Of a stretch of 64,000 nucleotides of DNA, positions 16,037-53,321 are shown piece by piece (positions within the stretch are counted from its first letter, which is position 1; each line of letters starts with the position of its first letter). This stretch comes from Parcubacteria group bacterium GW2011_GWA2_43_13 (GTDB lineage Bacteria > Patescibacteriota > Patescibacteriia > UBA9629 > GWA2-43-13): contig LCFM01000005.1 in assembly GCA_000999025.1 (NCBI GenBank), forward strand, positions 7,087 through 71,086, read 5' to 3'. The notes under the pieces are model-generated. The model worked only from the letters and a program-made list of their open reading frames with translations, was not told where the DNA came from and did no database searches. Made by a program: the position numbers and the translations under genes.

Positions 16037-16841
16037 AAGCCCTTGTTGCGTGCTCATTTCTCCATTTTTTTATTTCCGCATGATTGCCGGAGAGTAATAT
16101 ATCAGGCGTGTGCCATTTTATGTCTTGGATAGGGGAGAACGTCGCGGGCTTGGTGTATTGGGGGTACTCCACAGCACTTCTCCGCCCATTGGAGGATTCG
16201 GCCGTGGCAAGCTTTACGCTGTGGCTTTCTTCTTGGAGTGATTCTTCGTTGCCAAGGACGCCTGGGATGAGGCGGGCAATAGCTTCAGTTATCACTAAAG
16301 CTGGCAGTTCGCCACCGGATAATACATACGGACCAATTGAGTATTCATCATCAACCATATGATCCGCGACGCGCTGATCTACGCCTTCGTAGCGACCGCA
16401 GATAAGGACGATTGACTGTTTTTCAGTTATCAGTTGTCGGTTGTCAGTTTTCAAATTTTTTATGGTATTGGTTCGCGTGAGATTTTGCGCGTCTGTTTGC
16501 GTGAATTGTTTGCCACGAGGTGTCATCAGTAATATAGGGGAATCGTCAACATGAAAAACAGACGATGGATGGTTTTGGGTATTTTTTTCAATATTAAAAT
16601 CAGGGAATTGGTTTTTACGCAGTGCGAGTAGGCAGTTATACATCGGTCCCAGTTTCATGACCATACCTGGTCCGCCACCTGTTGGAGTATCATCTGTTGT
16701 TTTGTGTTTATCAGTCGCGAATGCTCTGATATCATGAGTAATAATGTTAATACTCCCCGCATCTTGCGCGCGTTTTAAAATGGTCTCATGAATGTATGAG
16801 TCAAAAATTTTTGGGAAAATTGTGAGGATGTGGAATTGCAT
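16035..16841 (-). CDS. trmD: tRNA (guanine37-N1)-methyltransferase TrmD
   Basis: MQFHILTIFPKIFDSY... N-terminus and SPOUT knot motifs (ICGRYEGVDQRV, GGELPALVITEAIARLIPGVLG). Start moved to ATG 16841. Carries a family-D repeat insertion. Confidence 0.85.
   Translation of the reverse strand: MQFHILTIFPKIFDSYIHETILKRAQDAGSINIITHDIRAFATDKHKTTDDTPTGGGPGMVMKLGPMYNCLLALRKNQFPDFNIEKNTQNHPSSVFHVDDSPILLMTPRGKQFTQTDAQNLTRTNTIKNLKTDNRQLITEKQSIVLICGRYEGVDQRVADHMVDDEYSIGPYVLSGGELPALVITEAIARLIPGVLGNEESLQEESHSVKLATAESSNGRRSAVEYPQYTKPATFSPIQDIKWHTPDILLSGNHAEIKKWRNEHATRA
16414..16465. repeat. family-D heptamer array inside trmD
   Basis: TTTTTCAGTTATCAGTTGTCGGTTGTCAGTTTTCAAATTTT. In frame, translated as KNLKTDNRQLITEKQ. 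Confidence 0.55.
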
Positions 16842-16850
16842 ACGCAAATA

Positions 16851-16926
16851 TCGGTTTTCAGTCGTCAAATTTTAAATTTTAAAGGCGAAGCAATGTGAAA
16901 TTTGACAACTGATATTTGAGTTACCA
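16851..16926. repeat. family-D inverted pair in the trmD-KH intergenic region
   Basis: TTTTCAGTCGTCAAATTT ... AAATTTGACAACTGATA arms in inverted orientation. Confidence 0.5.
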
Positions 16927-16975
16927 GAAACCCCGCACAATGGCGGGGTCTGGTTTTTTCAAGAACGCTATAAAG

Positions 16976-17296: not shown

Positions 17297-17627
17297 TCAG
17301 TTCGTGTGATCACGCATGTCACGCATCCTTTAGAGAGATGAGTTTCTTCCTGATAAGGGGAGCAACATGTTTGATCAGTATAAATTGTAAACAGTATCGT
17401 AACAGTTCGGATCGACATTTCCTACTGTGTTACACATAGAGACATCGTACTCCAGAATCGTACTCAATAACTTGTTAAAATCGTGCCTGGCTTGTTTTTC
17501 GCTTCAGGAAATTTTCGCCGTATCATTGGATACGGCTCAAATCCCCCTTGTTCCAAAACTGCGCCAGACACAGTTTTCCCTGCGTTCTCAGTCCGATTAT
17601 AGAGTGCGATGTCTCTATAATAGTATA

Positions 17628-17930: not shown

Positions 17931-18048
17931 ACATGTATAAGGTATTCTCTTTCATAAGACCGAACGGTCGAAGTTGCATCCGTGTCAATTACAAAAGGGA
18001 ATATTATGTTACTAAATGAACGTACGATACCCATTCTTGGGTGTTTTG

Positions 18049-24355: not shown

Positions 24356-26023
24356 ATGTCTAATCAAGGACACAAACAACAGGGCGCGGAGGAGGTATTA
24401 GATGAAAAAATGAAAGAGATAGAACTGAAACGGCAGGAACAAGAAGCTCAAGTTCATGCGGCGCAAGCAGGGGTTCAGTATATTAACCTTGAACATTTTC
24501 CCATTGATCAGGATGCGTTGTCATTCATTGAAGAGGTCCAAGCGCGCGCGCTTGGCGTCATTTGTATTTATCAAGAAATGCATATTCGTAAAGTTGCCGC
24601 AGTTCATCCCGAGCATCAGGCAGTGCAAGAATTTATTCAACAATTTTCCAATAATGGTGCCATAAAAGTTGATGTCGTACTGACAAGCCAGCATTCATGG
24701 GAAGAGGCGATGAAGTTGTATGCGCGGCTTCCAAAAAAAATAGTATTTTCAGACGACGTTACTATTAGCGCGGATATTCTTGCAGGGTTTCAGGAAAAAA
24801 TTAAAACGCTGGATGATTTAACACACGCGCTTGCCGAGGTCCAAATGACTGATAAAGTAGCCATGATATTGGCAGGTGGATTAAAAAGTGACGCCTCTGA
24901 TATTCATATCGAAGCGGAGGAAAATCGTATTATTATACGGTACCGCATTGATGGGATTTTGCATGAGGTTGCGCAACTTCCGTCAGAAACGTGGCAACAG
25001 GTGATTGCGCGGATTAAATTGATTTCAAAGATGAAAATTAATATTACGAGTAAGTCCCAAGATGGCCGTATTACAATTCGATTGAAAGACGACGCTGTTG
25101 ATGTTCGTGTTTCAACGATTCCGACAGCGTTTGGCGAAAGCGTGGTGATGCGTTTGTTGCGGTCATCTCACGCGGCTCATACATTTGAGGATTTGGGCTT
25201 ACGCGGGAGTGCGTACGCACTCTTGGAAAAAGAAATCGTTCGTCCCAATGGCATGATTATTACAACAGGCCCCACTGGTTCTGGGAAAACAACAACACTG
25301 TACGCAATCGTTAATAAATTAAATGATTCGAAAACAAAAATTATTACATTAGAAGATCCGATAGAATATAAATTACAAGGGATTAATCAAAGTCAGGTGG
25401 ACGCCGAGAAAGGATATACGTTTGCGGCCGGATTACGTTCCATTTTAAGACAAGACCCTGATATTGTGATGGTTGGTGAGTTGCGTGATTTGGAAACAGC
25501 GGATACTGCAATCAATGCGGCATTGACAGGTCATTTGGTTGTTTCAACATTGCATACGAATGATGCCGCAGGAGCTATTCCTCGATTTCTTGCCATGGAT
25601 GTTAAACCGTTTTTACTTGGCCCTGCGTTGAACGCGGTTATCGGCCAGCGGTTAGTCCGAAAGTTGTGTGAAAAATGCAAAAAACAAACACTACTTGCGC
25701 CTGATATGCAGGTGCGCGTAGATGCATTGCTTGCGGAATTACCTGATGCTGAAAAAGCGCAACTGAAGACGGAAAAGATATTTTATTTTGCTGTCGGATG
25801 TGAGGTATGCAATGGTATGGGATATAAAGGCAGGGTGGGAGTGTATGAGATTTTTCAGGTTGGAGATGACATTGAAAAAGCCATTAGCGAACAACGTGTT
25901 TCTGAAGCCGAAATGAGGGACATTGCGCGCGCTCAAGGCATGGTAACCATGGCGCAGGATGGTATTTTAAAAGCATTGGATGGAATTACAAGTGTGGATG
26001 AGGTGTTTCGGGTGACAGAATAA
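24356..26023 (+). CDS. second PilB/GspE-family secretion ATPase
   Basis: Walker A GPTGSGKTT and a tetracysteine CEKC...CEVCNGMGYKGR motif. Sits directly after dnaA where dnaN usually lies. Confidence 0.85.
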   Translation: MSNQGHKQQGAEEVLDEKMKEIELKRQEQEAQVHAAQAGVQYINLEHFPIDQDALSFIEEVQARALGVICIYQEMHIRKVAAVHPEHQAVQEFIQQFSNNGAIKVDVVLTSQHSWEEAMKLYARLPKKIVFSDDVTISADILAGFQEKIKTLDDLTHALAEVQMTDKVAMILAGGLKSDASDIHIEAEENRIIIRYRIDGILHEVAQLPSETWQQVIARIKLISKMKINITSKSQDGRITIRLKDDAVDVRVSTIPTAFGESVVMRLLRSSHAAHTFEDLGLRGSAYALLEKEIVRPNGMIITTGPTGSGKTTTLYAIVNKLNDSKTKIITLEDPIEYKLQGINQSQVDAEKGYTFAAGLRSILRQDPDIVMVGELRDLETADTAINAALTGHLVVSTLHTNDAAGAIPRFLAMDVKPFLLGPALNAVIGQRLVRKLCEKCKKQTLLAPDMQVRVDALLAELPDAEKAQLKTEKIFYFAVGCEVCNGMGYKGRVGVYEIFQVGDDIEKAISEQRVSEAEMRDIARAQGMVTMAQDGILKALDGITSVDEVFRVTE

Positions 26024-26028
26024 TAAGA

Positions 26029-26122
26029 GCAATCCTAACCTACTCATACATCCGAATCTACTAATACGGCGGACGTATTTGTAGATTAGCAGATTAGGAT
26101 GTCATTCGTAGATTAGGATTGC
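26029..26122. repeat. family-C palindromic element (about 94 bp), intergenic copy
   Basis: GCAATCCTAACCTACTCATACATCCGAATCTACTAATACG ... GTAGATTAGCAGATTAGGATGTCATTCGTAGATTAGGATTGC imperfect inverted repeat. A second copy lies inside tsaD at 32192-32316. Confidence 0.7.
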
Positions 26123-26124: not shown

Positions 26125-27363
26125 ATGATTATTGGTATTGACTTTTCCCGCGGTGAGATGGAACATCGCACCGGTGTGGAGTGGTATAGTCATAATATTG
26201 TTAAGCATCTACTTGATCTCGGCGCAGAGCACGAGATTGTTTTATATTCACGGAGGGGTGGGGTTTCCTCGTGTTGTAGAGATGGGGTTAACCCTGTCTC
26301 TATGGTGCATCTTCGCTGGCCATTCCGATTCGGCTGGACCCAGTTTCGTTTATCATTAGAAATGGTTCTGCGTCCGCCAGATGTATTGTTTGTACCATCG
26401 TATATTTTACCACCCATAACACCTAAACGCGTGGTAACTATGGTGCATGATGTCGCGTTTAAACGCCATCCAGAATGGTATTCTCAAAAACAAATACGAG
26501 TATTGGAATTAGGGATACGAAGGATTATTAAGAAACGTGTTGTTGTATTAGTGCCAACGGAATTTGTGAAACGAGAATTATTAAAGTTGTATCCGGAAAT
26601 GTGCGATTTGGATATTCGTGTCATTCCACATGGCGTTGATCACACGTTGTTTCGTCGTCGTTCCCCCTCGCCTTTACAAGGAGAGTCCGCTCCGCCAGCT
26701 GGTGGATGGCAGAGGGGTGAGGTGGTGGATACGAAAGTAGTACCCCCATCCCCGTATTTCCTCTTCATCGGTCGCTTGGAAAGTAAAAAAAATATTTCCC
26801 ATATTGTGGATGCATTTGTAGAGTTCGTCGGCGACGTTCCCTCGCCTTTACAAGGAGAGGGAAGGGTGAGGTCTTACGTAAAATCCGGCGACGTAGAGAC
26901 GGGGTTTCCGCCAGAGGCGGATCACCCACAGGGGGAAACTCCGTCTCTACAGACATCTCTCCTCCTCGTCGGTCGTCCTGGCCATGGTTACGAAAGATTT
27001 GCTCATAAATTGAATCATCCCAATATTCATGTTATACCATCGGTATCAGCCGAAGAATTGGTAATACTCTATCAAAATGCAATCGCATTGGTATTTTCAA
27101 CATTATACGAAGGGTTTGGTATGCCCATTCTTGAGGCCATGGCATGCGGATGTCCGGTAATCACCTCAAAAGGCGGTGCGTACGAAGAAGTGGCAGGAAC
27201 TGCCGCGTTATTGGTTGATCCTCATAATATATTAGATATTGCGGATGCAATGATAAAGATTCAATCAGGGGGCTGGAAGGAAAAAGGGTTAAAAAGAGCG
27301 CATCAATTTTCATGGGACGCATCAGCCCAACAAACATTAGCACTCGTATGCAACAAATATTGA
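26125..27363 (+). CDS. glycosyltransferase family 4 carrying in-frame repeat insertions
   Basis: N-terminal GT4 domain and C-terminal EGFGMPILEAMACGCPVITS motif. The middle (26650-26990) is built from family-A and family-B repeats translated in frame (SPSPLQGE..., VPSPLQGEG..., DVETGFPPEADHPQGETPSLQT). Confidence 0.75.
   Translation: MIIGIDFSRGEMEHRTGVEWYSHNIVKHLLDLGAEHEIVLYSRRGGVSSCCRDGVNPVSMVHLRWPFRFGWTQFRLSLEMVLRPPDVLFVPSYILPPITPKRVVTMVHDVAFKRHPEWYSQKQIRVLELGIRRIIKKRVVVLVPTEFVKRELLKLYPEMCDLDIRVIPHGVDHTLFRRRSPSPLQGESAPPAGGWQRGEVVDTKVVPPSPYFLFIGRLESKKNISHIVDAFVEFVGDVPSPLQGEGRVRSYVKSGDVETGFPPEADHPQGETPSLQTSLLLVGRPGHGYERFAHKLNHPNIHVIPSVSAEELVILYQNAIALVFSTLYEGFGMPILEAMACGCPVITSKGGAYEEVAGTAALLVDPHNILDIADAMIKIQSGGWKEKGLKRAHQFSWDASAQQTLALVCNKY
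26276..26303. repeat. family-A element copy inside GT4 gene
   Basis: GTAGAGATGGGGTTAACCCTGTCTCTAT. Confidence 0.7.
26653..26727. repeat. family-B element copy (CGTCGTCG..CCTCGCCTTTACAAGGAGAG..GGTGGATGGCAGAGGGGTGAGGTGG)
   Basis: Shares the CTCCTTTACAAGGAGAG palindrome and GGGGTGAGGT tail with copies at 26826, 28191, 29295 and 50848. Confidence 0.7.
26826..26872. repeat. family-B element copy
   Basis: CGTCGGCGACGTTCCCTCGCCTTTACAAGGAGAGGGAAGGGTGAGGT. Confidence 0.7.
26893..26950. repeat. family-A element copy with 30-nt internal loop insert
   Basis: GTAGAGACGGGGTTTCCGCCAGAGGCGGATCACCCACAGGGGGAAACTCCGTCTCTAC. Confidence 0.7.
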
Positions 27364-28781
27364 TATTTATTGTATTGGTAAGTTTGCCAGCATATTTGAT
27401 TCGGTTTGAGGTTTTTGGTATTCCAACCACGCTTTTGGAAATGGGAATTTATGCGGTGGCGTGTCTCCCGCTTCTTTACAATGAGAATCCGCTCCGTCAT
27501 CTGGCGGATGGCGGAGGGGTGAGGTGGAAGAAGAGATTCGCTGAGATGTTCCATCTGTTCAAACCATACCTCTGGCCATTACTGCTCTGGCTGGGAATGA
27601 CAACAGTGTCTGCTATAGTGAGCGCTACGTACGGGGATTGGATGTTGGGTTTTGGGATTTTGAAGGGATGGTTTTTTGATCCATTGTTGTTGACGTGGGT
27701 GGTTATGGCGTGTAGAGACGTGGCGGTGCCGCGTCTCCGTGGGAACGTGCCAGGTGGAGACGCCCCAGCGAGGCGTCTCTACAATATGCGTCTATTACTC
27801 GCCACAGGCCTTCTTGCTTCTGCGCTTATAATCAGCGCGTATGGATTATTTGATTACATGATGGGTTGGACGCGTGATGGTAGGTTAGATGCATTTTTTA
27901 AAACTTCAAATTATGTGTCCATGTTTATTGTGCCGGTATTGATATTGGGAGTAGGAATGATTGTAGAGACGCCCCCCTGGGGCGTCTCCGTCGCGCGCTG
28001 GAAATCGGCGCTGATGATCATTGTCATGATTATGATAACTACCGCTCTTATCCTCACCAATTCTTTTGGCGGCTGGATAAGCGCGTTGATTGGGGTAGTT
28101 GTTTTTTTCGTTTTTTTCTTACGACACCAAACACCCCCTTCCTGTCCCTCTTCCCATCACAAGGATGGGGCACAGCAAGAGGGGAGCGATCGTCGTCCCC
28201 CTCTCCTTTATAAGGAGAGGGTAGGGGTGAGGTGTTGGCGCATAGTTTTTATACTCATATCTCTCATGGTTCTTGGTGCTTTCGTCTGGTACGGCTTACC
28301 CCGTCACTTTACTCACCGCAACGAATTTTTTAATGTAACATCTTCCCAACTGCGACAAAATTTATGGCGTGTGGCAGGGGATATGGTGCAAACCCATCCG
28401 ATACTTGGTGTGGGGCTGGGAAGATTTCAAAAAGAATTGCCAATTCTTATAAAACAAAAACCGCACCTTTTGACGGTTCAAACGATATTAGTTGATTTTC
28501 ATCTTCCGCATAATTTATATCTGACAATCGCATCAGAATCCGGGCTCATCGCCTTGCTTGGTTTTCTATGGTTTATCGGGTTATGGTTATGGCGTGGAGC
28601 AAAACAATACATATCAACCCGTGATCCTATACTTCTCGGCGCACTCTGCGCCATGCTTACTATTCTCATCCACGGCTTTGTAGACACTCCATATTTTAAA
28701 AATGATTTATCGATATTGTTTTGGATAGTAGTGGTGATTGGAGTTTTGTCATCCTCAGAACGGAAGTATACCGTTTTGTAG
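27312..28781 (+). CDS. O-antigen ligase/polymerase-like (Wzy_C family) polytopic membrane protein carrying five in-frame repeat copies
   Basis: Multi-TM. GVGLGRFQKEL...HLPHNLYLTIASESG resembles the O-antigen ligase domain. True start may be the ATG at 27348. Family-A copies at 27712, 27756 and 27963, and family-B material at 27503 and 28191, are all read in frame. Confidence 0.6.
   Translation: MGRISPTNISTRMQQILIFIVLVSLPAYLIRFEVFGIPTTLLEMGIYAVACLPLLYNENPLRHLADGGGVRWKKRFAEMFHLFKPYLWPLLLWLGMTTVSAIVSATYGDWMLGFGILKGWFFDPLLLTWVVMACRDVAVPRLRGNVPGGDAPARRLYNMRLLLATGLLASALIISAYGLFDYMMGWTRDGRLDAFFKTSNYVSMFIVPVLILGVGMIVETPPWGVSVARWKSALMIIVMIMITTALILTNSFGGWISALIGVVVFFVFFLRHQTPPSCPSSHHKDGAQQEGSDRRPPLLYKERVGVRCWRIVFILISLMVLGAFVWYGLPRHFTHRNEFFNVTSSQLRQNLWRVAGDMVQTHPILGVGLGRFQKELPILIKQKPHLLTVQTILVDFHLPHNLYLTIASESGLIALLGFLWFIGLWLWRGAKQYISTRDPILLGALCAMLTILIHGFVDTPYFKNDLSILFWIVVVIGVLSSSERKYTVL
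27712..27738. repeat. family-A element copy
   Basis: GTAGAGACGTGGCGGTGCCGCGTCTCC. Confidence 0.65.
27756..27782. repeat. family-A element copy
   Basis: GGAGACGCCCCAGCGAGGCGTCTCTAC. Confidence 0.65.
27963..27989. repeat. family-A element copy
   Basis: GTAGAGACGCCCCCCTGGGGCGTCTCC. Confidence 0.65.
28191..28232. repeat. family-B element copy
   Basis: CGTCGTCCCCCTCTCCTTTATAAGGAGAGGGTAGGGGTGAGGT. Confidence 0.7.
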
Positions 28782-28829: not shown

Positions 28830-31660
28830 GCAAGCTTGTTTAATTTTTTTTGCGCTTGGTGGAGTTTAGATTGTTCGGTTTGTATGACTGCTTTGGGCGC
28901 CTTTGCGAGGAAATCTTGATTTGAAAGTTTTTGCTCAAGAGATGTGATGTAATGTTCCAATTCTTTTTTTGCTTTATTGATTTTTTTATCATCGCGCGGG
29001 ATGTGCAGGGTGAGGGAGATACCATGTTCGTGGATAGTGTGGCCTTGGGTGTTTGTTTTGGTTTGATTGATAAATGTTACGCGTGCCAGTTTTTCGATGA
29101 GGAGGATATTGGGGGATATTCGGCGTTGTAGAGACGGGGTTAACCCCGTCTCTACAACGAGCGACGGTTCTATTTTAAACTCCGCCCGCGCGTTGCGGAT
29201 GGCTGTGATGATGGCACGGATAGTGGCGTGGTGTTTGAGGGCAGGTGAGGATTTAATGGTTGGTGATTTGGGGTAGGGGGCGATGAGGATCAATGACGAC
29301 GACACACCCTTCTGCCCCCTCTTAATAGAGGGGGAAACATCGTCGTCGTCCCCCTCTCCTTTACAAGGAGAGGGTAGGGGTGAGGTTAAGGAGGGGGTGG
29401 TATTTAATTCTCCCCACACTTTTTCCGTAATAAACGGGATAAACGGATGCCAGAGGCGTAACAGAGTTTGTAAAATATATAATAATATTTCGTTTTTTCC
29501 CTGTTCAATCTTTACAATCTCCACATACCAATCTGCAAATTTATCCCAGGTGAATTCGCGCAATTTTTCTCCGGCTGGTGAAAATTCAAAATTATCCATG
29601 TGCTTGGTAACATCATGGATCAAGATATCTAATTCTGCCAAAATCCATTCATCACTTAATGTTTGTGCTTTTGGTTTTTTTTCTATCAACTGTGGTGTAT
29701 CAACGGTGGTAAGAATAAACCGCGAGATATTCCAGAATTTATTGATAAAATTCCTAAACCCTTCAATTTTTTCCTCATACATTTTTATGTCATTACCCGG
29801 GGTGGAGCCGATAATTAAGGATAATCGCAACGCATCTGTGCCGTATGTTTGAATCATCTCTACTGGATCAATCCCATTGCCTAATGATTTTGACATTTTT
29901 CTGCCTTCTTTATCCCGCACCATCCCGTGAAGATACACGGTTTTAAAGGGGATTTGTTTAGTGTTATAGGTTGTCATTAAAATCATACGCGCAACCCAAA
30001 AGAATAAAATCTCATACCCTGGCGCCATGACTGAAGTTGGGTGGAATGTTTTAAAATCAGGCGAGCGTTTCAGCCATTCGGCAAGGGATTCATCTTTTTT
30101 TATTTTCGTATCAAGTAGGGTTGAAAATGTCCACAAGGCAGACGAGAACCATGTGTCCAATGTGTCCGGGTCCTGGGTAAACGTGGTGCTTCCACAGCGC
30201 TTGCATTTTTTAGGTTGCTCAATACTGGCGAGCGGGGGGCACGATTTTTTGATTTCGTCCGCCAGCTGGCGGATCGGATTTCGGATTTTTGTTTCGCAAT
30301 ACCAAACCGGCACTCTGTGTCCAAACCAAATTTGGCGGGAAATGCACCAGTCCTGTAAATTATTTATCCAGTGAAAATATGTTTTTTTAAATCTGCTCGG
30401 CAAAATTTCAATATCCTCGGATTTAACCACATCAATGGCAACTTCCTTGAGTGTTTTCTTTTTTCCTTTCCATACAACAGCTGGTTTATCCACGCTCATA
30501 AACCATTGCAAAGAAAGATACGGCTCAACCACTGCATCACAACGATAACAATGCCCAATATTATGTATGTGTTTTTCTGTTTTTTTCAGCAGTCCACGTT
30601 GTTGTAATTCCTCAATAATAAGTTTGCGAGCATCAGCAACAGCCCAGTTTTTGTATTTTCCGCCGTGATCATTGAGTGTGCCGTCAGGGTTGAGGATATT
30701 GATATATGCAAGATTGTGGCGTTTAGCGATTTGATCATCATTAAAATCATGCGCAGGAGTTACCTTTACCGCGCCGGTTCCAAATGAGGGGTCCACATGT
30801 CTGTCCGCAATGATTGGAATTTCGCGATTTGCAAGCGGAAGGGTAACAGTTTTGCCAATAAGATGTTTGTATCGTTCATCTTTTGGGTTGACTGCAACGG
30901 CCGTGTCGCCGAGCATGGTTTCCGGACGGGTTGTTGCGACGGTTATTTTGCCCCCCCCTCCTAAGGTAGGATGGGGTGGGGGGAGGTCTGAATTTTTTAT
31001 CGGATAATCAATATAATACAATATTCCTTCTGTTTCCGCGTATTCCACTTCGTCATCCGCAAGCGTGGATTCACATCTTGGACACCAATTGACCAACCGA
31101 TTGCCGCGAACAATCAATCCGTCGTTGTACATGTTTACAAATACTTTTTGTACGCATTTGGTAAGCACAGGCGACATGGTATATGCTTCGCGCGACCAAT
31201 CGCAACTTGCGCCTAATTTTCGCAGTTGATGTTCTATGGTTGTTTTTGATTCTTCAACATACTGATTCACGCGTTCCAAAAATTTTTCACGCCCTAAATC
31301 GTGCCGGGTTTTTCCTTCTTGCGAGATTAGTTTTTCTACCTTATTCTGAGTGGCAATAGCGGCATGATCCACACCCGGCACCCATAGTGTTTTTTCTCCT
31401 TTCATGCGGTGATACCGTACAATCACATCGTGCAGAGATGTTTCCATGGCATGGCCAAGATGCAACACCCCGGTTGCGTTCGGCGGTGGCATCATTAAAG
31501 AGAATGGCTTTATCTTTTTTCCTGAATAATGATCTGGATTAAAAAATCCTGACTGCTCCCATTGTCGGTATATGCCATCCTCAATTTTTTGAGGATCGTA
31601 TTGTTTGGGTAATTCGGCCTGTTTCCGCGTTTTTGATAGTTTTTTAGTGCCTTTTTTCAT
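28826..31660 (-). CDS. valS: valine--tRNA ligase
   Basis: HIGH (PNATGVLHLGHA) and KMSKS (KMSKSLGNGIDP) motifs, editing domain. 944 aa including approximately 60-80 aa of repeat-derived insert near the C-terminal coiled coil. Confidence 0.95.
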   Translation of the reverse strand: MKKGTKKLSKTRKQAELPKQYDPQKIEDGIYRQWEQSGFFNPDHYSGKKIKPFSLMMPPPNATGVLHLGHAMETSLHDVIVRYHRMKGEKTLWVPGVDHAAIATQNKVEKLISQEGKTRHDLGREKFLERVNQYVEESKTTIEHQLRKLGASCDWSREAYTMSPVLTKCVQKVFVNMYNDGLIVRGNRLVNWCPRCESTLADDEVEYAETEGILYYIDYPIKNSDLPPPHPTLGGGGKITVATTRPETMLGDTAVAVNPKDERYKHLIGKTVTLPLANREIPIIADRHVDPSFGTGAVKVTPAHDFNDDQIAKRHNLAYINILNPDGTLNDHGGKYKNWAVADARKLIIEELQQRGLLKKTEKHIHNIGHCYRCDAVVEPYLSLQWFMSVDKPAVVWKGKKKTLKEVAIDVVKSEDIEILPSRFKKTYFHWINNLQDWCISRQIWFGHRVPVWYCETKIRNPIRQLADEIKKSCPPLASIEQPKKCKRCGSTTFTQDPDTLDTWFSSALWTFSTLLDTKIKKDESLAEWLKRSPDFKTFHPTSVMAPGYEILFFWVARMILMTTYNTKQIPFKTVYLHGMVRDKEGRKMSKSLGNGIDPVEMIQTYGTDALRLSLIIGSTPGNDIKMYEEKIEGFRNFINKFWNISRFILTTVDTPQLIEKKPKAQTLSDEWILAELDILIHDVTKHMDNFEFSPAGEKLREFTWDKFADWYVEIVKIEQGKNEILLYILQTLLRLWHPFIPFITEKVWGELNTTPSLTSPLPSPCKGEGDDDDVSPSIKRGQKGVSSSLILIAPYPKSPTIKSSPALKHHATIRAIITAIRNARAEFKIEPSLVVETGLTPSLQRRISPNILLIEKLARVTFINQTKTNTQGHTIHEHGISLTLHIPRDDKKINKAKKELEHYITSLEQKLSNQDFLAKAPKAVIQTEQSKLHQAQKKLNKLA
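29128..29155. repeat. family-A element copy (canonical) inside valS
   Basis: GTAGAGACGGGGTTAACCCCGTCTCTAC perfect 28-bp palindrome. Translated as VETGLTPSL. Confidence 0.8.
29295..29386. repeat. family-B composite element inside valS
   Basis: GACGACGAC...CCCCCTCTTAATAGAGGGGG...CGTCGTCGTCCCCCTCTCCTTTACAAGGAGAGGGTAGGGGTGAGGT. Translated (minus strand) as SPLPSPCKGEGDDDDVSPSIKRGQKGVSS. Confidence 0.7.
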
Positions 31661-31760: not shown

Positions 31761-32897
31761 TTATTTTAGCCGCAGATTTGGATCTGCGGTTATTTTTCTG
31801 TAATCTGTTTTTTGTTTTGAGTATTTTGTTTTTACCAATGCGGCGATGGCGATCATGGCGGCGTTGTCAGCCGAGGTGCCGGGGAGAGGGAAGCGGAGAT
31901 CAGTTTTCGGTTTTCGGTTTTCAATTTTCAGTTTTTCTGTGAGTTGGTTTCGGAGGTGTTGATTTGCGGCGACACCGCCACCGACAACAAGGGTTTTAAT
32001 ATGGTAGTGTTCAACTGCTCGCAGGGTTTTTATAACTAACACATCAATTGCCGCGTTTTGAAATTCGCATGCGACTTGCGCGCGATTATAATCGGGGTGT
32101 TTTTCTATCAAATATCGCACTGCGGTTTTAAGTCCCGAGTAACTGAAGTTGAAGTCAGGAGAATCAATCATCGGGCGAGGGAATGTTATGGGCAATCCTA
32201 ATCTACTAATAACATCCGAATCTACGAATACGGGGCTGTCGTCTGTAGAGACGGGGTTAACCCCTCTTCTATGGTGTATTATTTGTAGATTAGGATGCAT
32301 TCGTATATTGGGATTGCTCCATTCGGATGCCTCTTGTTCTATCGCTGGACCGCCAGGATAGGGAAATCCTAAGAGTTTTGCTACTTTATCAAATGCTTCG
32401 CCCACCGCATCATCAATCGTTGTCCCGATAATCTCAAAATCATAGTGCTGTTTCATAAGCACCAATTGCGTGTGTCCGCCAGATACCAACAGCGCAAGCA
32501 CGGGAAATTGAAAATCATCAACATTTTTTAGTGTTGAGTAAATATGGCCAGCCATGTGGTTTATAGGAATGAGCGGTTTATTCCATGCCAGTGCCAGCGT
32601 TTTTGCCGTCTCTACGCCGATATGCAATGCCGCTATAAGACCGGGGCCCTGCGTTACGGCAATGCCGTCTATATTTTGATACGAAATATGAGCGGCATCA
32701 AACGCTTGTGTGATAACAGGGATGATATTGAGGATATGGTTACGCGCGGCAATTTCCGGTATGACGCCACCATATTGTGCGTGAATTTTGGCTTGCGATG
32801 CGATGATATTTGACACAATAGCAATAGCACCATTTGTTTCTTGTACAATGGCGGCCGCGGTTTCATCGCATGATGATTCAATTCCAAGGATGATCAT
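31761..32897 (-). CDS. tsaD: tRNA N6-adenosine threonylcarbamoyltransferase TsaD (Kae1/YgjD family) carrying in-frame repeat insertions
   Basis: MIILGIESSCDETAAAIV..., HMAGHI and GGVAAN motifs. Start moved to ATG 32897. Contains a nested family-C/family-A insert (32192-32316) and a family-D heptamer array (31897-31945). Confidence 0.9.
   Translation of the reverse strand: MIILGIESSCDETAAAIVQETNGAIAIVSNIIASQAKIHAQYGGVIPEIAARNHILNIIPVITQAFDAAHISYQNIDGIAVTQGPGLIAALHIGVETAKTLALAWNKPLIPINHMAGHIYSTLKNVDDFQFPVLALLVSGGHTQLVLMKQHYDFEIIGTTIDDAVGEAFDKVAKLLGFPYPGGPAIEQEASEWSNPNIRMHPNLQIIHHRRGVNPVSTDDSPVFVDSDVISRLGLPITFPRPMIDSPDFNFSYSGLKTAVRYLIEKHPDYNRAQVACEFQNAAIDVLVIKTLRAVEHYHIKTLVVGGGVAANQHLRNQLTEKLKIENRKPKTDLRFPLPGTSADNAAMIAIAALVKTKYSKQKTDYRKITADPNLRLK
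31897..31945. repeat. family-D heptamer tandem array (CAGTTTTCG GTTTTCG GTTTTCA ATTTTCA GTTTTTC)
   Basis: Five degenerate 7-mer units, in frame in the tsaD C-terminus. Related arrays at 16414, 16851 and 51996. Confidence 0.6.
32192..32316. repeat. composite nested element: family-C palindrome with a family-A element (32245-32272) inserted at its centre, inside tsaD
   Basis: GCAATCCTAATCTACTAATAACATCCGAATCTACGAATACGG-[GTAGAGACGGGGTTAACCCCTCTTCTAT]-...ATTTGTAGATTAGGATGCATTCGTATATTGGGATTGC. Compare the insert-free copy at 26029-26122. Confidence 0.75.
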
Positions 32898-36066: not shown

Positions 36067-37068
36067 ATGGAACGAGTGATCGTACCCGATGAATTGGAAG
36101 AGGACACTGGTGTGGAGCAGACGCTTCGGCCAGCATGGCTTGCTGATTATATTGGGCAATCAAAAATTAAAGAGAATATCCGTATTTTTATTTCTGCCGC
36201 AAAAATGAGGCAAGAACCATTGGAGCATGTGTTACTCTATGGTCCGCCCGGCCTTGGCAAAACAACTCTTGCGCATGTTATAGCTCATGAAATGGGAACG
36301 CATATACGGGTTACAAGTGGACCAGCTATTGAACGCGCAGGAGATTTGGCTTCTATTTTAACCAATCTTTCTGATGGAGATATTTTATTTATTGATGAAG
36401 TTCATCGTTTAAACCGGCTTATTGAAGAGGTTTTGTATCCTGCTATGGAGGACTATCATTTGGATATTATTATCGGGAAAGGGCCTTCAGCTCGGACGGT
36501 TACAATAGATCTTCCTCATTTTACGTTAATAGGAGCGACAACGCGCGCCAGTTTAATTTCGTCTCCGCTTAGGGATCGTTTTGGCAGTGTGTTTCATCTG
36601 GATTTTTATTCTCACGAGGAAATGAATGATATTATTCAACGTTCTGCTCGGATTTTGTCATTAGCTATTGAGGATGCGGCCACACAGGAAATTGCTCAAA
36701 GATCTCGTAAAACGCCTCGAATAGCGAATCGTCTTTTGCGTCGCGTGCGTGATTACTGTCAAGTAAAAGGGGATGGGAGTATTGGGCATTCAATGACAAA
36801 AGAGTCGCTTGCTCATTTAGATATAGATCATCTTGGTCTTGATTCGGTTGATCGAAAAATACTTCAATTTATTATTGAAAAATATCAAGGCGGTCCTGTC
36901 GGATTGGGAACCATTGCGGCGGCAACGAGTGAAGAAGAGGCGACGATAGAAGATGTGTATGAGCCATTTTTAATACAAATCGGATTTTTGCATCGCACCC
37001 CGCGTGGCAGAATGGCGACTCCTGCGGCATATGACCATTTGGGAGGAGAAGAAAGGAAGTTGCTATGA
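36067..37068 (+). CDS. ruvB: Holliday junction branch-migration ATPase RuvB
   Basis: Walker [12 protein letters not shown], Walker [11 protein letters not shown], sensor and winged-helix regions. Confidence 0.95.
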
Positions 37069-37150
37069 TTCCAAATGCCAGTTTTCAGTGATCACATGTC
37101 TCCGTCAGTTGGCGGATTAAATGTGACATTTGAAAACAGGTATTTGATCT

Positions 37151-38185
37151 ATGAATACTTCATTGTTTGATTATCATCTTCCAAAAGAGCTCATAGCTCA
37201 TGAGCCAATAACACCCCGCGATTCAGCGCGGGTGTTTGTTGTGGAGGGGGAGGTGCGTCATCATGATTTTTTTTATAATATTGGGAAATATGTTAAAAAA
37301 GGCGATATTCTTGTGCGTAATGTTACAAAGGTGTTTCCAGCGCGTCTTTATGCTACAAAAATGACTGGAGGTAAGGTAGAGATTTTATTAGTCCGTCCAT
37401 TAGACGGTTCTCGATGGGAGTGTTTAGTAGGGGGACGCGCAAAAGACGGGATGGAGGTGCGATTCGATTGTAGAGACGTGCCCTTGGCACGTCTCTCGGA
37501 AACGCCCCAGGGGGGCGTCTCTATGATATGGATTATAGATTTCGGGCAAAATATAGATAACCTTGGAACACTCATTGAAACCGCAGGTCAAACGCCCGTG
37601 CCACCATATATTCACACCGATATGGCGGAGCAGGAATTGCGCGACCGATATCAAACAATATATGCGCATAAAAGTGGTTCAGTGGCGGCGCCAACCGCTG
37701 GCCTGCATTTTACTGATGAATTGATAGATCAGTTGAAACGCCAAGGTATTGAATTTTTAGACATTATTTTGCATGTGGGGATTGGCACTTTTTTGCCTGT
37801 AAAAACGAAAAACGTAGAAGATCACTCTATGCATGCCGAGTATGTAGATATCTCAAATGAGGTTGCACAAAAAATATGTTCAGCAAAATATGAAGGCCGA
37901 CGTCTCATCGCTATTGGAACAACTACGACCCGTGCGCTTGAGGCGTGCGCAGATACACTGTTATTAGGTAAAGGATATACAGGCGAGGTGAATATATTTA
38001 TAACGCCTGGATACGAGTTTCGTATGATTGATGGATTGGTGACTAATTTTCATCTTCCAAAATCAACATTACTCATGCTGGTTTCTGCGTTTGCAGGCCG
38101 TGAAAATATCCTTTCTTGTTACCAAGAGGCCATTGCATTGGGCTACACATTTTACTCTTTTGGTGATGCAATGCTGATAAGTTAA
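37151..38185 (+). CDS. queA: S-adenosylmethionine:tRNA ribosyltransferase-isomerase QueA carrying two tandem family-A insertions
   Basis: MNTSLFDYHLPKELIAHEPITPRDSARV... and conserved QueA blocks. 37469-37523 translates as DCRDVPLARLSETPQGGVSM. Confidence 0.9.
   Translation: MNTSLFDYHLPKELIAHEPITPRDSARVFVVEGEVRHHDFFYNIGKYVKKGDILVRNVTKVFPARLYATKMTGGKVEILLVRPLDGSRWECLVGGRAKDGMEVRFDCRDVPLARLSETPQGGVSMIWIIDFGQNIDNLGTLIETAGQTPVPPYIHTDMAEQELRDRYQTIYAHKSGSVAAPTAGLHFTDELIDQLKRQGIEFLDIILHVGIGTFLPVKTKNVEDHSMHAEYVDISNEVAQKICSAKYEGRRLIAIGTTTTRALEACADTLLLGKGYTGEVNIFITPGYEFRMIDGLVTNFHLPKSTLLMLVSAFAGRENILSCYQEAIALGYTFYSFGDAMLIS
37469..37495. repeat. family-A element copy
   Basis: GTAGAGACGTGCCCTTGGCACGTCTCT. 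Confidence 0.65.
37498..37523. repeat. family-A element copy (partial left arm)
   Basis: GAAACGCCCCAGGGGGGCGTCTCTAT. Confidence 0.6.
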
Positions 38186-39636: not shown

Positions 39637-39811
39637 CTCACTCGATTGAATCGCTCCGCACCTTTCCGTTCAATGGGTTTTGGTATTCAACGGAAGAGAG
39701 CGAAGCGGCTCCGCCTCACATCTATGATTTTAAAGAAGATCATTCGCGAGAAAGGTGTGGGGTTGCAGACCCCATGCCTGACCATTGTTGGTTTGTCATT
39801 TGTGTCGGCTT

Positions 39812-39839
39812 GCAGAGACGGGGTTAACCCCGTCTCTGC
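39812..39839. repeat. family-A element copy (GCAGAGACGGGGTTAACCCCGTCTCTGC) in the polA upstream region
   Basis: Canonical centre GGGGTTAACCCC. Located between tRNA-Cys and the polA start. Confidence 0.7.
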
Positions 39840-39957
39840 AACTAAAAACACATCAACTGTACCAAGATTAGTGCCAAAATGCAACTATTCAAAAAGGATG
39901 GAGGAAGGTATACTGGTTGGAGTAATACCACCTCATCTCTCTTGGGGAGGCCGAACT

Positions 39958-43655: not shown

Positions 43656-43665
43656 TATAAAAATA

Positions 43666-43693
43666 ATGAGACGCCCCAACGGGGCGTCTCTAC
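43666..43693. repeat. family-A element copy at convergent junction holA/rpsT; probable bidirectional terminator
   Basis: ATGAGACGCCCCAACGGGGCGTCTCTAC, 10 bp after the holA stop and 12 bp after the rpsT stop. Confidence 0.7.
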
Positions 43694-43704
43694 AATTTCT
43701 ACAA

Positions 43705-47330: not shown

Positions 47331-47413
47331 ACAGAATGTAAAAAGTAAAATGGCAAAGTAAAATTTAAAGAGAAAGATTTTTATATTTTACATTGTCATT
47401 TTACTATTTTATT

Positions 47414-48201
47414 TTATGTGGTGAGTTTTCTAAAGATATCTTCAAGAGAAACGCGTTCGCGGTAGAGTTCCATAATCGGCCAGTGGTTGCGTGCGGCAAG
47501 GGTAAAGATATCTTCACGCATGTCATGATGCGCGATAATCCGAAAGCGGCAACAATCTTGCTCTGTCGCGGAATGGGGTTCAACTTTTTGAATATCTGGA
47601 AGTTGTTCGATTTCTGATTGTATGGAGTCCGATGGTCCCTTGAGCGTGAGGATAATGTTTTCTTTTGCAGAGCCCGCTTGTAGCAGTTCTTCGGTGGTCC
47701 CTTGTGCAACGATGTTTCCTTCATGGATAATAATCATTCAATAAGGTCAGGGTTGTGGACTAATGATTGGGCAATGCCGACGCGTTGGCGGAATCCTTTG
47801 GAAAGGTCGCCGATTGGTTTATGGAGCATTTTTTCTAATCCGCATGATTGGACCATTTCACTGATGCGGGATGCGCGTATTGCGCGTGGCACACCCCGCA
47901 GTTCCGCGACAAACGCAAGATATTCTGATACCTGAAATTCATCATACAAGGGGTTTCGTTCCGGTAGGTAGCCGATTTTTGCGCGCGTTTCATCTGGATG
48001 ATCTTGGATATCCATGCCATCAATGCTCACACTGCCGCTGGTTGGAGCAGTATAGCCGGTAATGATTTTCATGGTCGTTGTTTTGCCGGCTCCGTTCGGG
48101 CCTAAAAAACCAACCACTTCGCCGCTTTGAACGGAAAAAGAGACATTATTGACTGCAGTAACGTCTCCGAATTTTTTTGTGAGGTGGTTAATTTCTATCA
48201 T
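47414..48201 (-). pseudogene. ABC transporter ATP-binding protein (GldA-like) disrupted by an internal deletion plus frameshift
   Basis: N-terminal piece (48201-47734) has Walker A GPNGAGKTT, Q-loop and LSKGFRQRV signature, then stops at ...NPDLIE*. C-terminal piece (47737-47414, other frame) begins at the post-H-loop IIIHEGNIVAQG. Walker B, D-loop and H-loop (about 45 aa) are absent. Confidence 0.55.
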
Positions 48202-50068: not shown

Positions 50069-51155
50069 TTATCATAATTTGTTTGATGATACTTGATTTA
50101 TACAGTTCCGGTTTATAGGCGTCTAATCGGAGAACGTGGGTTTTAAACCCGCGTTCTTTTAGTTCTTTGCGCAGTTGAGTTTCGCTATATGCTTGGTCAT
50201 ATCCTAAACAGATTAGATTTGGAGAATATTTTTTAATCAATGCAAAGTAATCAGTTTCATCGCCGATATATGCATCATCTACATACTTCAACGCTTTAAT
50301 GTGTTGAAGTCGTTCTTGTTGCGTATAGATTGGTGGTTTCTTTTTTTGTTTCATAACATTGTTGTCTGTTGTAATAACAACAATCAGCTGGGAGCTGAAT
50401 TTTTTTGCCTGCTGAAAAAAATATTCATGGCCTTTGTGGAGTAGGTCGAATACGCCAAAGACCATGACTGTAGAGTTTGTATGGGGTGGTGGGAGAGTGG
50501 GTAGTGTGATTGCGTCGTCCAATGTGAAATCACCAATCGCGGTGCGGCTGAGGGATGTAAGATACGCGCCGTATCCGAGTGATTTGCCGATGTCATGACC
50601 AAGCGTGCGGATATAGGTTCCGCTTGAACAATGCACGTCTATTGTGAGATGTGGCCATTTATATGAGATGAGATCAATAGAATAGATTTCTATCTCATGC
50701 GGTTTGCGTTCTATCTCTTTGCCTTGGCGGGCAAGCTCATAGAGTTTTTTTCCATTCACTTTTTTTGCTGAGTACATGGGAGGGGTTTGGAGTTGGCGAC
50801 CGAGAAAGGAGGATAATGTGGTTTCGAGTTCGACTGTTTTTTCTAATACCTCACCCCAACCCTCTCCTTGTAAAGGAGAGGGGGTTACGACGCCCGTTTT
50901 ATCCTGCGTGTCGCTGGTTGCGCCTAAAAAGAGGATTGCGCGGTATTTTTTATCTAACCCAACAAAGTATTTTAATAATTTAGTAGAGGACCCAATAGCC
51001 ATAATCAACAACCCGTCTGCAAACGGGTCAAGTGTTCCTGCATGGCCAATCTGTCTGATGCCAGTGATACGGCGGAGCTGGTTGACTATGTCATGCGATG
51101 TCGGGCCAGCAGGTTTATTGATGAGTAAAAATCCATTCATACTGCCAGTTTTCAA
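50034..51155 (-). CDS. truB: fusion protein: tRNA pseudouridine(55) synthase TruB catalytic domain + C-terminal cytidylyltransferase-like nucleotidyltransferase domain (RibF FMN-adenylyltransferase-like)
   Basis: N-terminal 225 aa are TruB (LLINKPAGPTSHDIV, GHAGTLDP catalytic Asp motif) with a family-B insert. C-terminal approximately 140 aa (from MVFGVFDLLHKGHEYFF, ...YKSSIIKQI) have HxGH and ISSTxIR-like nucleotidyltransferase motifs. No PUA domain and no riboflavin-kinase domain. Confidence 0.7.
   Translation of the reverse strand: MKTGSMNGFLLINKPAGPTSHDIVNQLRRITGIRQIGHAGTLDPFADGLLIMAIGSSTKLLKYFVGLDKKYRAILFLGATSDTQDKTGVVTPSPLQGEGWGEVLEKTVELETTLSSFLGRQLQTPPMYSAKKVNGKKLYELARQGKEIERKPHEIEIYSIDLISYKWPHLTIDVHCSSGTYIRTLGHDIGKSLGYGAYLTSLSRTAIGDFTLDDAITLPTLPPPHTNSTVMVFGVFDLLHKGHEYFFQQAKKFSSQLIVVITTDNNVMKQKKKPPIYTQQERLQHIKALKYVDDAYIGDETDYFALIKKYSPNLICLGYDQAYSETQLRKELKERGFKTHVLRLDAYKPELYKSSIIKQIMIITPLVVHSTHL
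50848..50891. repeat. family-B element copy (reverse orientation) inside truB
   Basis: ACCTCACCCCAACCCTCTCCTTGTAAAGGAGAGGGGGTTACGACG. Translated as TPSPLQGEGWGEV. Confidence 0.7.
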
Positions 51156-51215
51156 ATGTCAGTTGTCACATATGATCTCCTTGCTATCGGATATATATAA
51201 CACCTGATAACTGAA

Positions 51216-53321
51216 TTAGGATTGCTTTGTATCTTTGAGTTCAGTGATACTATCCCTTAACTTGGTGGCTTTTTCAAATTCAAGGTTTTGGGCCGCAAGT
51301 TCCATTTGTGCCTCAAGTTCTTTAAGAAGATGCGGGATTTCATCTTTGGGAATATCTTGAAATCTGTTTTTTGTCCGCCGGCTGGCGGATTGTTTTTTAT
51401 CTTGTGTTCGACTAAACTGATCTTCTTTGATTGCTTTTTGGATTGATAGTGGCGTAATTCCATGTTTTTTGTTATATGTTTTTTGTATCGTGCGCCTGCG
51501 ATTCGTTTCGTTAATCGCACGTTTCATAGAGCCAGTCACAATGTCGGCGTACATAATCACACGGCCGTCAATATGGCGAGCGGCGCGGCCCATAGTTTGG
51601 ATCAGAGATGTCTCACTCCGTAAAAATCCTTCTTTGTCAGCGTCTAAAATAATCACTAAAGATACTTCTGGTAAATCCAACCCTTCGCGCAAAAGATTTA
51701 TTCCAACCAAAACGTCGTATGTGCCTTTACGAAGATCGCGCAGAATTTCTATGCGTTCAAGTGTGGCAACTTCTGAATGAAGGTATTGCGATTGGATACC
51801 ACATTCTTGTAGATAATCATTGAGTTCCTCTGCTAATCGTTTGGTAAGGGTTGTGATAAGAACGCGCTGTTGTTTTTTTACTCGTTTTTGAACTTCGGCG
51901 AGTATGTCGTCTATTTGATTTTTTGTTGGTCGCATCTCAATCGTTGGATCTAAAAGGTAGGTCGGTCGGATGAGTTGTTGGGCGATATGCCAATGTTCAG
52001 TTTTCGGCTTGGCTGGCAAATTTGACAACTGATAACTGACACCTGGCAACTGGCTATTTTTCATAATTTTTGATAATCCAATCGTTTTTACTTCATCTAC
52101 GTTCATATCGGTTGATTTCCCAATCTCGTATGGACCCGGGGTTGCCGAAACGTATAGAGTTTGATGTATTTTTGACTCAAATTCTTTAAATGTCAGTGGC
52201 CGGTTGTCTCGTGCCGCAGGCAGGCGAAAGCCGTAGTTGATGAGCATATCTTTACGGCTTTTGTCTCCGTGGTACATACCGCCGATTTGCGGAATAGTCA
52301 TATGGGATTCATCTATCATTAATAGAAAATTTTTAGGGAAATAATCCAACAGTGTATATGGCGGTGTACCCTGTTCTCTTCCGTCAAAGTATCGGGAATA
52401 ATTTTCTATACCATTGCAGTAGCCGATATTTTTGATCATTTCAAGGTCATATCGGGTGCGTTGTTCAATGCGCTGTGCTTCTAAAAGTTTATTCTGCCCG
52501 GTAAACATACTTACTTGCTCCAACATATCACGTTCAATGGTTGCCAGTATATTTTTTCTGTTTTCTTCGGGAGCGACATAATGCGTTGCCGGGTATATAT
52601 CAATAGTATGGATATTTTTAATTTTTTGTTTACCTGTTAAAGAGTCCAGAATATGAATCTGTTCTATGGTATCTCCAAATAGTTCAATGCGGATGATTTC
52701 ATCCAAAGAAAATACTGGATATATTTCTATACTATCTCCACGCACGCGAAATGTTCCGCGATGAAAATCAGTATCATTGCGCGTGAATTGTAATTGTGTT
52801 AAATGTCGCAATATGTCGTTTCTTGGAATACATTGGCCTTGTGTAACGGTTATGGCTTGTTTTTTATATTCTTGCGGAGATCCAAGTCCGTAAATGCAGG
52901 ACACCGAGGCAACAATAATCACGTCATTTCTGGAAAGGAGCGATTGAGTTGAAGCGTGGCGTAGGCGATCTATTTCTTCGTTCACTTGGGTTTCTTTTTC
53001 TATGTATGTGTCTGACTGGGGGATATATGCCTCTGGCTGGTAATAATCGTAATATGAGACAAAATAGTGCACTGCGTTATTGGGGAAAAACGACTGAAAT
53101 TCGGTCGCGAGTTGAGCGGCCAGAGTTTTGTTGTGAGATATGATAAGCGCGGGGCGTTGAAGATTATTGATAATATTCGCCATGCTAAACGTTTTTCCGC
53201 TTCCGGTAACACCTAATAGCGTTTGGCTGTGATTGCCTTGTGTGATCCATTGTGAAATCTGCTCGATTGCGCCGGGCTGATCTCCTGTGGGTTTGTATGG
53301 TTTATGAAGGTTAAAACGCAT
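51216..53321 (-). CDS. uvrB: excinuclease ABC subunit B
   Basis: Walker A GVTGSGKTF, helicase motifs, beta-hairpin, C-terminal UvrB/UvrC interaction helix. Contains a family-D repeat insert around 51996-52065. Confidence 0.95.
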   Translation of the reverse strand: MRFNLHKPYKPTGDQPGAIEQISQWITQGNHSQTLLGVTGSGKTFSMANIINNLQRPALIISHNKTLAAQLATEFQSFFPNNAVHYFVSYYDYYQPEAYIPQSDTYIEKETQVNEEIDRLRHASTQSLLSRNDVIIVASVSCIYGLGSPQEYKKQAITVTQGQCIPRNDILRHLTQLQFTRNDTDFHRGTFRVRGDSIEIYPVFSLDEIIRIELFGDTIEQIHILDSLTGKQKIKNIHTIDIYPATHYVAPEENRKNILATIERDMLEQVSMFTGQNKLLEAQRIEQRTRYDLEMIKNIGYCNGIENYSRYFDGREQGTPPYTLLDYFPKNFLLMIDESHMTIPQIGGMYHGDKSRKDMLINYGFRLPAARDNRPLTFKEFESKIHQTLYVSATPGPYEIGKSTDMNVDEVKTIGLSKIMKNSQLPGVSYQLSNLPAKPKTEHWHIAQQLIRPTYLLDPTIEMRPTKNQIDDILAEVQKRVKKQQRVLITTLTKRLAEELNDYLQECGIQSQYLHSEVATLERIEILRDLRKGTYDVLVGINLLREGLDLPEVSLVIILDADKEGFLRSETSLIQTMGRAARHIDGRVIMYADIVTGSMKRAINETNRRRTIQKTYNKKHGITPLSIQKAIKEDQFSRTQDKKQSASRRTKNRFQDIPKDEIPHLLKELEAQMELAAQNLEFEKATKLRDSITELKDTKQS
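51996..52065. repeat. family-D repeat block inside uvrB
   Basis: CAGTTTTCGG...AAATTTGACAACTGATAACTGACACCTGGCAACTGG. Confidence 0.55.

Follow-up and report, generated by a model that had tools for sequence, protein, structure and literature searches.

The 64-kb stretch of DNA analysed here (the window) comes from a groundwater bacterium of the candidate phyla radiation (CPR), which the names on its matching proteins assign to the Candidatus Jacksonbacteria / Parcubacteria group. Its TsaD is identical to a protein of 'Candidatus Jacksonbacteria bacterium RIFCSPLOWO...' and its UvrB to a protein of GW2011_GWA2_43_13; the same UvrB is encoded identically on 19 independent contigs from NCBI, JGI, ENA and Logan assemblies, ten of which match window positions 41352-63321 at 99.97-100% identity. 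CPR bacteria typically have small genomes, as the host presumably does too. Short palindromic elements, here called family D, lie within trmD and uvrB and in the spacers before trmD, between ruvB and queA and between uvrB and truB-ribF, and an array of similar units lies within tsaD. The window was compared with the related species sp2, sp3 and sp4, the DNA of relatives amounting to 112 kb from four species; the copy counts given below cover these 112 kb and the window, and hence part of the genome.

An earlier note on the window had described family D as heptamer arrays inside trmD, tsaD and uvrB and in one intergenic inverted pair at 16851-16926. All four blocks lie where it placed them, and the heptamer periodicity is borne out by Tandem Repeats Finder (TRF), which gives period 7 at the three genic sites, 16423-16453 in trmD (4.4 copies), 31900-31935 in tsaD (5.1 copies) and 52023-52052 in uvrB (4.3 copies), and detects period-7 arrays in relatives too. 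Its list was incomplete, however, the hairpins at ruvB/queA and uvrB/truB-ribF having been overlooked, and alignment of the arms shows that a heptamer-modular palindrome describes the element better than a plain array does. A full copy is an imperfect palindrome of 74-82 nt whose arms are chains of the 7-nt units CAGTTNT, CAAATNT and CACATNT. Eight arms, from four inverted pairs, align to the consensus CAAATRY CAGTTNT CAAATKT CACATNT ..CCG and differ in length by the gain or loss of whole 7-nt units; since they align and also pair with one another, terminal inverted repeats are present. Three non-repetitive features are common to the copies, namely the CAAATRY end, an AAATTT junction and an inner CACAT..CCG. 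The inverted intergenic arms that the note had seen before trmD, TCAGTCGTCAAATTT at 16858-16872 on the minus strand and AAATTTGACAACTGA at 16898-16912 on the plus strand, can indeed fold into a hairpin. Folding z-scores of ten intergenic copies from the window and its relatives range from -1.8 to -7.9, whereas in trmD and tsaD the array is a single arm without RNA structure and the uvrB copy folds only weakly.

Family D is enriched in the window. The 15-mer AAATTTGACAACTGA has two exact occurrences there and two more that differ at one position, and with up to three mismatches it has 16 matches against 4.3 expected, a number reached in none of 100 shuffles. Runs of at least three relaxed units number six against 0.69 expected (maximum of 200 shuffles, 4). 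An nhmmer profile of the arms, from whose building the 112 kb of relatives were withheld, gave at a cut-off of at least 12 bits nine arm matches in the window and 13 in the relatives, and not one in the negative set, which comprised 1.38 Mb of sequence from 80 unrelated genomes, other CPR bacteria included. A more distant Jacksonbacterium, with a TrmD 63% identical, likewise had no arm match in 10 kb. The family is therefore restricted to this lineage, and the shuffle controls together with the negative set exclude chance low-complexity sequence as its source.

The copy in trmD reads, on the coding strand, AAATTT GAAAACT GACAACC GACAACT GATAACT GAAAAAC and translates, as claimed, to KNLKTDNRQLITEKQ. 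Alignment with orthologs upholds the claim that it is an insertion: the 51 nt, or 17 aa, are missing from the TrmD proteins P0004-P0007 and from more distant orthologs, and at the DNA level they are extra relative to the relatives' contigs L095 and L223. The block is common to the window, a 99% variant and sp2, whose protein is 88% identical and whose insert is the same. At the same codon sp3 carries a 51-nt insertion of a different family, family B (CCCCCTCTCCTTTACAAGGAGAGGGCTGGGGTGAGGT), which is found five times elsewhere in the window; this unrelated CCCCCTCTCC...GGAGAGGG family at an orthologous codon bears out the note's view of family D as a separate repeat class that shares the lifestyle of the other palindromic families. 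In the AlphaFold model of TrmD the insert (residues 125-140) is a coil with a predicted local distance difference test score (pLDDT) below 50, between a conserved helix (115-122) and a strand (143-148) that leads into ICGRYEG, so that the insertion is predicted to fall in a structurally tolerated surface region. The hairpin upstream (-17.4 kcal/mol, z -4.5) ends 3 nt before the trmD ATG (16841) and lies 57 nt past the stop of the gene for a KH protein, with a GC-rich stem-loop (16930-16949) between that gene and the hairpin.

Assembly error was weighed at this site. In GCA_003485785.1 (DNHW01000020.1; contig L221, 3834-3835) a gap falls exactly at the trmD array and appears as a 56-nt deletion of it; this is an NN scaffold gap and not a deletion, and because of it trmD is annotated there as two fragments. 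The array is identical in nine other independent assemblies and the uvrB copies in ten strain contigs, and we regard an artefact, like chance, as extremely improbable.

Several further observations concern the surroundings of trmD. Contigs L214, L218 and L220 share 11 single-nucleotide polymorphisms (SNPs) within 54 nt of the 3' part of the gene (about 16111-16164 in the window), matching the protein variant P0001; the cluster resembles a recombination tract. Between the KH-protein gene and trmD, three related species carry a conserved gene of ~310 aa with the motifs YHRxxHT and AAFHDT; it has no Pfam match and left no tblastn trace in the window, which holds the GC-rich stem-loop and the D hairpin at that site instead. 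The distant relative L223 is also without it. Directly downstream of trmD lies the 16S rRNA gene (14449-15836), after which no 23S rRNA match was found within the window; about 300 nt past its 3' end is a LAGLIDADG-type open reading frame (13695-14144).

The uvrB copy is nested in another insertion. On the coding strand it reads CAGTTGC CAGGTGT CAGTTAT CAGTTGT CAAATTT, with D-like sequence around it spanning 51987-52052. Here too the claimed insertion stands up, the 45-nt, 15-aa block being missing from all other UvrB sequences examined: LPGVSYQLSNLPAKP is limited to the window species, and the sp4 orthologs P0244 and P0245 are without it. The older insertion that harbours it, of ~23 aa, is found in the window, in P0244 and P0245 and in P0246 and is absent from sp2 and sp3; P0246 carries another block, of 40 aa, at this position. 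Residues 404-445 of the window UvrB are missing from all UvrB structures in the PDB and from 80 genome matches. The scan of genome contigs that yielded these matches, all at or below 57% identity, was dominated by the universal YYDYYQPE motif, and serves as a negative set and as a test of the uniqueness of the insertion.

Downstream of uvrB, the spacer hairpin before truB-ribF (-19 kcal/mol, z -2.4), whose arms match the profile, has orthologous D hairpins in sp2 and, rearranged, in sp3, while sp4 has a different palindrome; the sp2 hairpin is longer by exactly one ACATTTG unit. The window also has the hairpin between ruvB and queA (-35.3 kcal/mol, z -7.9, fold of 37070-37149; arm matches of 23.3 and 19.4 bits), and sp3 has a D hairpin at this site too. 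The truB-ribF gene of sp3 contains a nine-unit compound array that the window lacks. In the spacer between a glycosyltransferase gene and T2SSE there is a D hairpin in sp2, another palindrome family in the window (26024-26118) and a third in sp3. Orthologous sites are thus polymorphic for the presence of family D at trmD, uvrB, truB-ribF and the glycosyltransferase spacer.

The tsaD array is a different case. On the plus strand it reads CAGTTTT CGGTTTT CGGTTTT CAATTTT CAGTTTT, and it matches the arm profile weakly, at 7.5 bits; its relation to family D is confined to the sequence of the units. Two claims about it failed: it does not lie at the C-terminus but at residues 321-335 of 378, and no insertion can be demonstrated, since the array region of the window is only 2 aa longer than that of sp3 and other orthologs are equal or longer there. 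The tsaD gene of sp3 has its own period-7 array of a different unit at the orthologous place, which would fit an old array homogenised separately in the window lineage and in sp3.

Table 1. Positions of the family-D copies, of associated features and of other palindromic repeats (window coordinates unless a contig is named).
Feature	Position	Strand	Remarks
trmD family-D half-element	16413..16463	(-)	in-frame 51 nt, 17 aa, about I127-S143
Intergenic hairpin before trmD	16845..16918	(-)	fold and arm profile matches 16845-16873 and 16886-16918
tsaD period-7 array	31894..31935	(-)	TRF 5.1 copies, score 51; peptide EKLKIENRKPKTD
Intergenic hairpin ruvB/queA	37072-37147	(+)	fills spacer from ruvB stop (37066-37068) to queA ATG (37151)
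Intergenic hairpin uvrB/truB-ribF	51143-51216	(-)	between uvrB stop (51216-51218) and truB-ribF ATG (51140)
uvrB family-D insertion	52005..52049	(-)	in-frame 45 nt, 15 aa LPGVSYQLSNLPAKP; profile match 23.3 bits
Older UvrB insertion (host context, not family D)	51987..52106	(-)	M406-H445 with the D copy nested in it; lies between the two helicase halves
~310-aa gene loci in relatives	L091 8845-9999; L094 7110-8045; L095 89-1018		compared with window 16842-16975
Other palindrome family TGTAGAGACGCCCC..GGGGCGTCTCTACA	414-447, 27708-27992, 37466-37530, 43659-43699		
Other palindrome family TGTAGAGACGGGGTTAACCCCGTCTCTACA	26273-26306, 29125-29158, 32243-32275, 39810-39842		
Other palindrome family CCCCCTCTCCTTTAYAAGGAGAGGGTAGGGGTGAGGT	26662-26692, 26839-26866, 27464-27527, 28190-28236, 29343-29386, 50845-50887		
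Other palindrome family GCAATCCTAATCTAC...	26008-26122, 32171-32229		

All in-gene copies keep the reading frame, as had been noted, and the three host open reading frames are intact, those of trmD and uvrB in many assemblies. The genic copies are moreover filtered for stop codons. Each ...AACTGA... junction carries a TGA that the 7-nt period rotates through the three frames; for the three arrays on that strand none of four in-frame junctions is TGA (three are CGA and one TGG), against eight of 11 out of frame.

The arrays could in principle have arisen as heptanucleotide microsatellites by independent local replication slippage, converging on an A/T-rich unit with no copying between sites. 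Differences in unit number do exist between species, as in the one extra unit of the sp2 uvrB/truB-ribF hairpin, and the tsaD array, with no insertion and separate homogenisation in two species, agrees with such an origin. Variation between strains, which the earlier note had proposed as a check on slippage, was not seen in about ten contigs per locus: none of the D copies changes length in the ten contigs that cross uvrB and its downstream hairpin or the nine that cross trmD and its upstream hairpin, and strains differ within a D copy at a single position only, a SNP in the hairpin before trmD. Perfect arrays of three or more units are likewise missing from the window, the units differing at 1-3 positions, and the arrays are therefore degenerate and not active microsatellites. 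Against convergence stand the shared CAAATRY end, AAATTT junction and inner CACAT..CCG, and blocks of 45-51 nt that appear whole where empty orthologs show no seed.

Units of this kind are nevertheless widespread, a further point on the side of local slippage, with CAGTTNT/CAAATNT arrays in unrelated metagenome contigs that include HIP1-rich (cyanobacterial) ones. A metagenome scan for CRGTTNTCAGTTNTCAAATNT returned more than 113 matches. Among the matches listed, the contigs have 28-62% GC, and most matches belong to unrelated heptamer arrays of greater length, (CAGTTTT)n(CAAATCT)n for example; the copies of the genome under study are not among them, and the scan gives breadth and no copy number. 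The listed matches include CAGTTAT arrays in the HIP1-rich contigs L112, L170 and L173, and D-type hairpins in L155 and L165, the former also with the window's family B. The highly iterated palindrome HIP1 marks cyanobacteria. Because similar arrays occur in these other contigs, the heptamer unit type is not unique to the lineage, whereas the defined palindrome is. With the shared features and the whole blocks against it, we hold independent slippage to be a distinctly unlikely origin for family D. As a separate observation, compound (CAGTTTT)n(CAAATCT)n arrays recur at many loci in contigs L100, L105, L109, L129, L130, L138 and L141 (51-55% GC), which suggests a dispersed heptamer element of another, higher-GC lineage.

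A second possibility is that the intergenic hairpins have a function as RNA or DNA, for example as an RNase III processing site, a terminator or insulator, or a stop-start re-initiation device, with the in-gene arrays as by-products. In the window, sp2 and sp3 the hairpins at ruvB/queA and uvrB/truB-ribF bridge stop and start almost completely, from 1-4 nt past the stop to 0-5 nt short of the ATG. Every species examined has a palindrome of one family or another in these spacers, the intergenic hairpins fold strongly, most genes have no Shine-Dalgarno (SD) sequence and an RNase III gene lies in the neighbourhood. However, neither sequence nor family is conserved at a given site, upstream of trmD the more distant relative shows no hairpin but an ordinary terminator, and the in-gene copies are without structure. 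Scans for sigma-70 promoters and intrinsic terminators around the three hairpins gave nothing consistent, and Rfam at gathering thresholds matched the 16S rRNA gene and tRNAs only, with no match at the D sites. Moreover, a compact genome with tiny spacers would yield the same stop-hairpin-start picture for any insert, and the simplest reading of the hairpin positions is that elements landed in the very short spacers of such a genome. We accordingly think a functional role of the hairpins unlikely.

Three related ideas were dropped or came to nothing. A promoter in the 3' arm was abandoned because its TTGACA-like and TATTTG-like motifs are just ~12 nt apart; a DNA-uptake sequence is ruled out by the low copy density and the too variable sequence; and the clustering of in-gene copies near hairpins (two pairs within 1 kb) is not significant, at P about 0.14 by our own estimate. 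In the gene calls of L001, L091 and L096, about three quarters of genes have no SD-like motif within 20 nt of the ATG, and TAnnnT-like boxes are common 2-12 nt upstream of gene starts; the two together hint that mRNAs in this lineage may be leaderless or have very short leaders.

On balance, and with modest confidence, we consider family D to be a selfish or neutral palindromic repeat of the Jacksonbacteria clade, akin to MITEs (miniature transposable elements with inverted repeats) or repetitive extragenic palindromic (REP) sequences, which is tolerated only in spacers and protein loops and drifts by heptamer slippage. Copies or half copies would be written into new sites, moving in trans through some responsible enzyme and serving no function of their own. 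In a compact genome most insertions would be lethal, and the survivors would sit in stop-to-ATG spacers of a few nucleotides or in disordered surface loops; with so few permissive sites, different repeat families would strike the same ones time and again. Once inserted, a copy's modules would drift by point mutation and by the gain and loss of whole heptamers through slippage, and within genes selection would purge the in-frame TGA of the ...AACTGA... junctions.

Several findings weigh against the selfish or neutral interpretation. No target-site duplication was seen at any copy whose flanks were read, and the gene lists of the 64-kb window and the 112 kb of relatives contain no transposase, no REP-associated tyrosine transposase (RAYT) and no full-length parent element. 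The copies were counted in part of the genome and not per genome. The in-gene copies are half elements or arrays and not whole palindromes, which makes them a poor fit to simple cut-and-paste. At two intergenic sites three species all keep a D hairpin, and this could point to function and not neutrality. Finally, a mismatch-free run of 71 nt between the window and sp2 (16417-16487, trmD gene nt 355-425) spans the array, the gene being 85% identical overall (P about 6e-4); such a run is not what neutral decay predicts and may reflect a recent recombination patch or constraint at the DNA level.

The reuse of sites by unrelated families deserves separate mention. Codon 127 of trmD holds either D or B, each of 51 nt; the insertions in uvrB are nested; and one spacer has three palindromes in three species. 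It is conceivable, if improbable, that this reflects a targeted, templated 'overwrite', by insertion into or conversion of existing hairpins, or that translation or processing in an SD-less lineage requires the stop-hairpin-start arrangement. Were overwriting real, family D would rank with the smallest known mobile elements, here in CPR bacteria. Site reuse by different families also maps, in nature, which loops of conserved proteins are permissive.

Family D does not stand alone in the window, where at least four other palindromic repeat families (Table 1) have many copies within the glycosyltransferase, ValRS, TsaD, QueA, PolA and TruB-RibF genes; they are translated there, for example as SPLQGEGWGEV. 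Two strain differences lie near the ABC-transporter genes. A 136-bp deletion between short direct repeats, in the window and one other contig, splits an ATPase gene (~47740) into 47404-47724 and 47734-48201, L001 and L005 keeping the intact 307-aa gene; considered as possible family-D variation, it proved unrelated. Downstream of the ABC genes, at 47379-47416, an A/T-rich array (ATAAAATAAAAAAGTAAATAG), which does not belong to family D, differs in length by 7 bp between strains; no other heptamer-size indel was seen at the strain level.

The genomes of CPR/Patescibacteria are considered streamlined, yet this clade tolerates several selfish palindromic families even in essential enzymes; the proteins affected are TrmD (beside its knot region), UvrB, TruB-RibF and TsaD. 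The practical effects are longer proteins, confused homology-based annotation and broken assemblies. Literature searches for palindromic repeats or MITEs in CPR/Patescibacteria found no description.

Among known systems, family D resembles the REP, bacterial interspersed mosaic element (BIME) and REPIN sequences of Enterobacteria and Pseudomonas as an intergenic imperfect palindrome without target-site duplication, often intercistronic or at a 3' end, that forms a stable RNA hairpin. REPs, however, are confined to extragenic positions, lack a heptamer-modular build and are linked to RAYT, a Y1 transposase, whereas family D has copies within trmD and uvrB and, in sp3, within truB-ribF, with no RAYT in the ~64 kb of this genome. 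With MITEs such as Correia, Nezha and the enterobacterial repetitive intergenic consensus (ERIC) it has in common small size, lack of coding capacity, inverted ends and presence/absence polymorphism between relatives; it differs in having neither target-site duplication nor an identifiable parent insertion sequence in the regions seen, and in the internal periodicity of its arms.

The short tandemly repeated repetitive (STRR) heptanucleotide arrays and small dispersed repeats of cyanobacteria, reportedly described by Mazel and colleagues in 1990 and by Elhai and colleagues in 2008, come closest in their unit. Family D shares with STRRs the 7-nt unit, compound heptamer arrays, inverted arrays that form hairpins, small elements nested at the same spots and a near-identical unit (CAGTTAT). 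STRRs are long, near-perfect and mostly intergenic, in the large genomes of (filamentous) cyanobacteria; family D, in contrast, has 3-6 degenerate units and a defined palindrome, lies also inside essential genes and has a non-cyanobacterial host. The heptamer-modular build ties these repeats to the poorly understood cyanobacterial heptanucleotide repeats and makes a second, far simpler genome available for studying their origin. Heptanucleotide simple sequence repeat (SSR) contingency loci, for example Haemophilus hmw1A with its unit length of 7 (PMC8262952), likewise have a 7-nt unit and change by whole units, but they are perfect repeats that vary within populations, whereas family D is degenerate and invariant among strains.

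In lifestyle the nearest parallel is found in the Rickettsia palindromic elements (RPEs), which are ~100-150 bp long, encode a conserved peptide and insert in frame (Ogata et al. 2000, summarised in PMC10969869). As far as that summary describes them, they too are short palindromic repeats in a bacterium that has a reduced genome and depends on a host, lying in spacers and in frame within housekeeping genes that are left intact, with several unrelated families per genome and insertions in tolerated protein regions. By analogy, the Rickettsia parallel suggests that a host-dependent, small-population lifestyle may favour such elements. Set against the same summary, family D differs in length (74-82 nt whole and 45-51 nt in genes), in its 7-nt modules, in its in-gene half elements and in its host, a CPR bacterium and not an alphaproteobacterium. 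Family D therefore fits no known family definition fully, and joins the lifestyle of RPEs to an STRR-like unit and a REP-like intergenic form.

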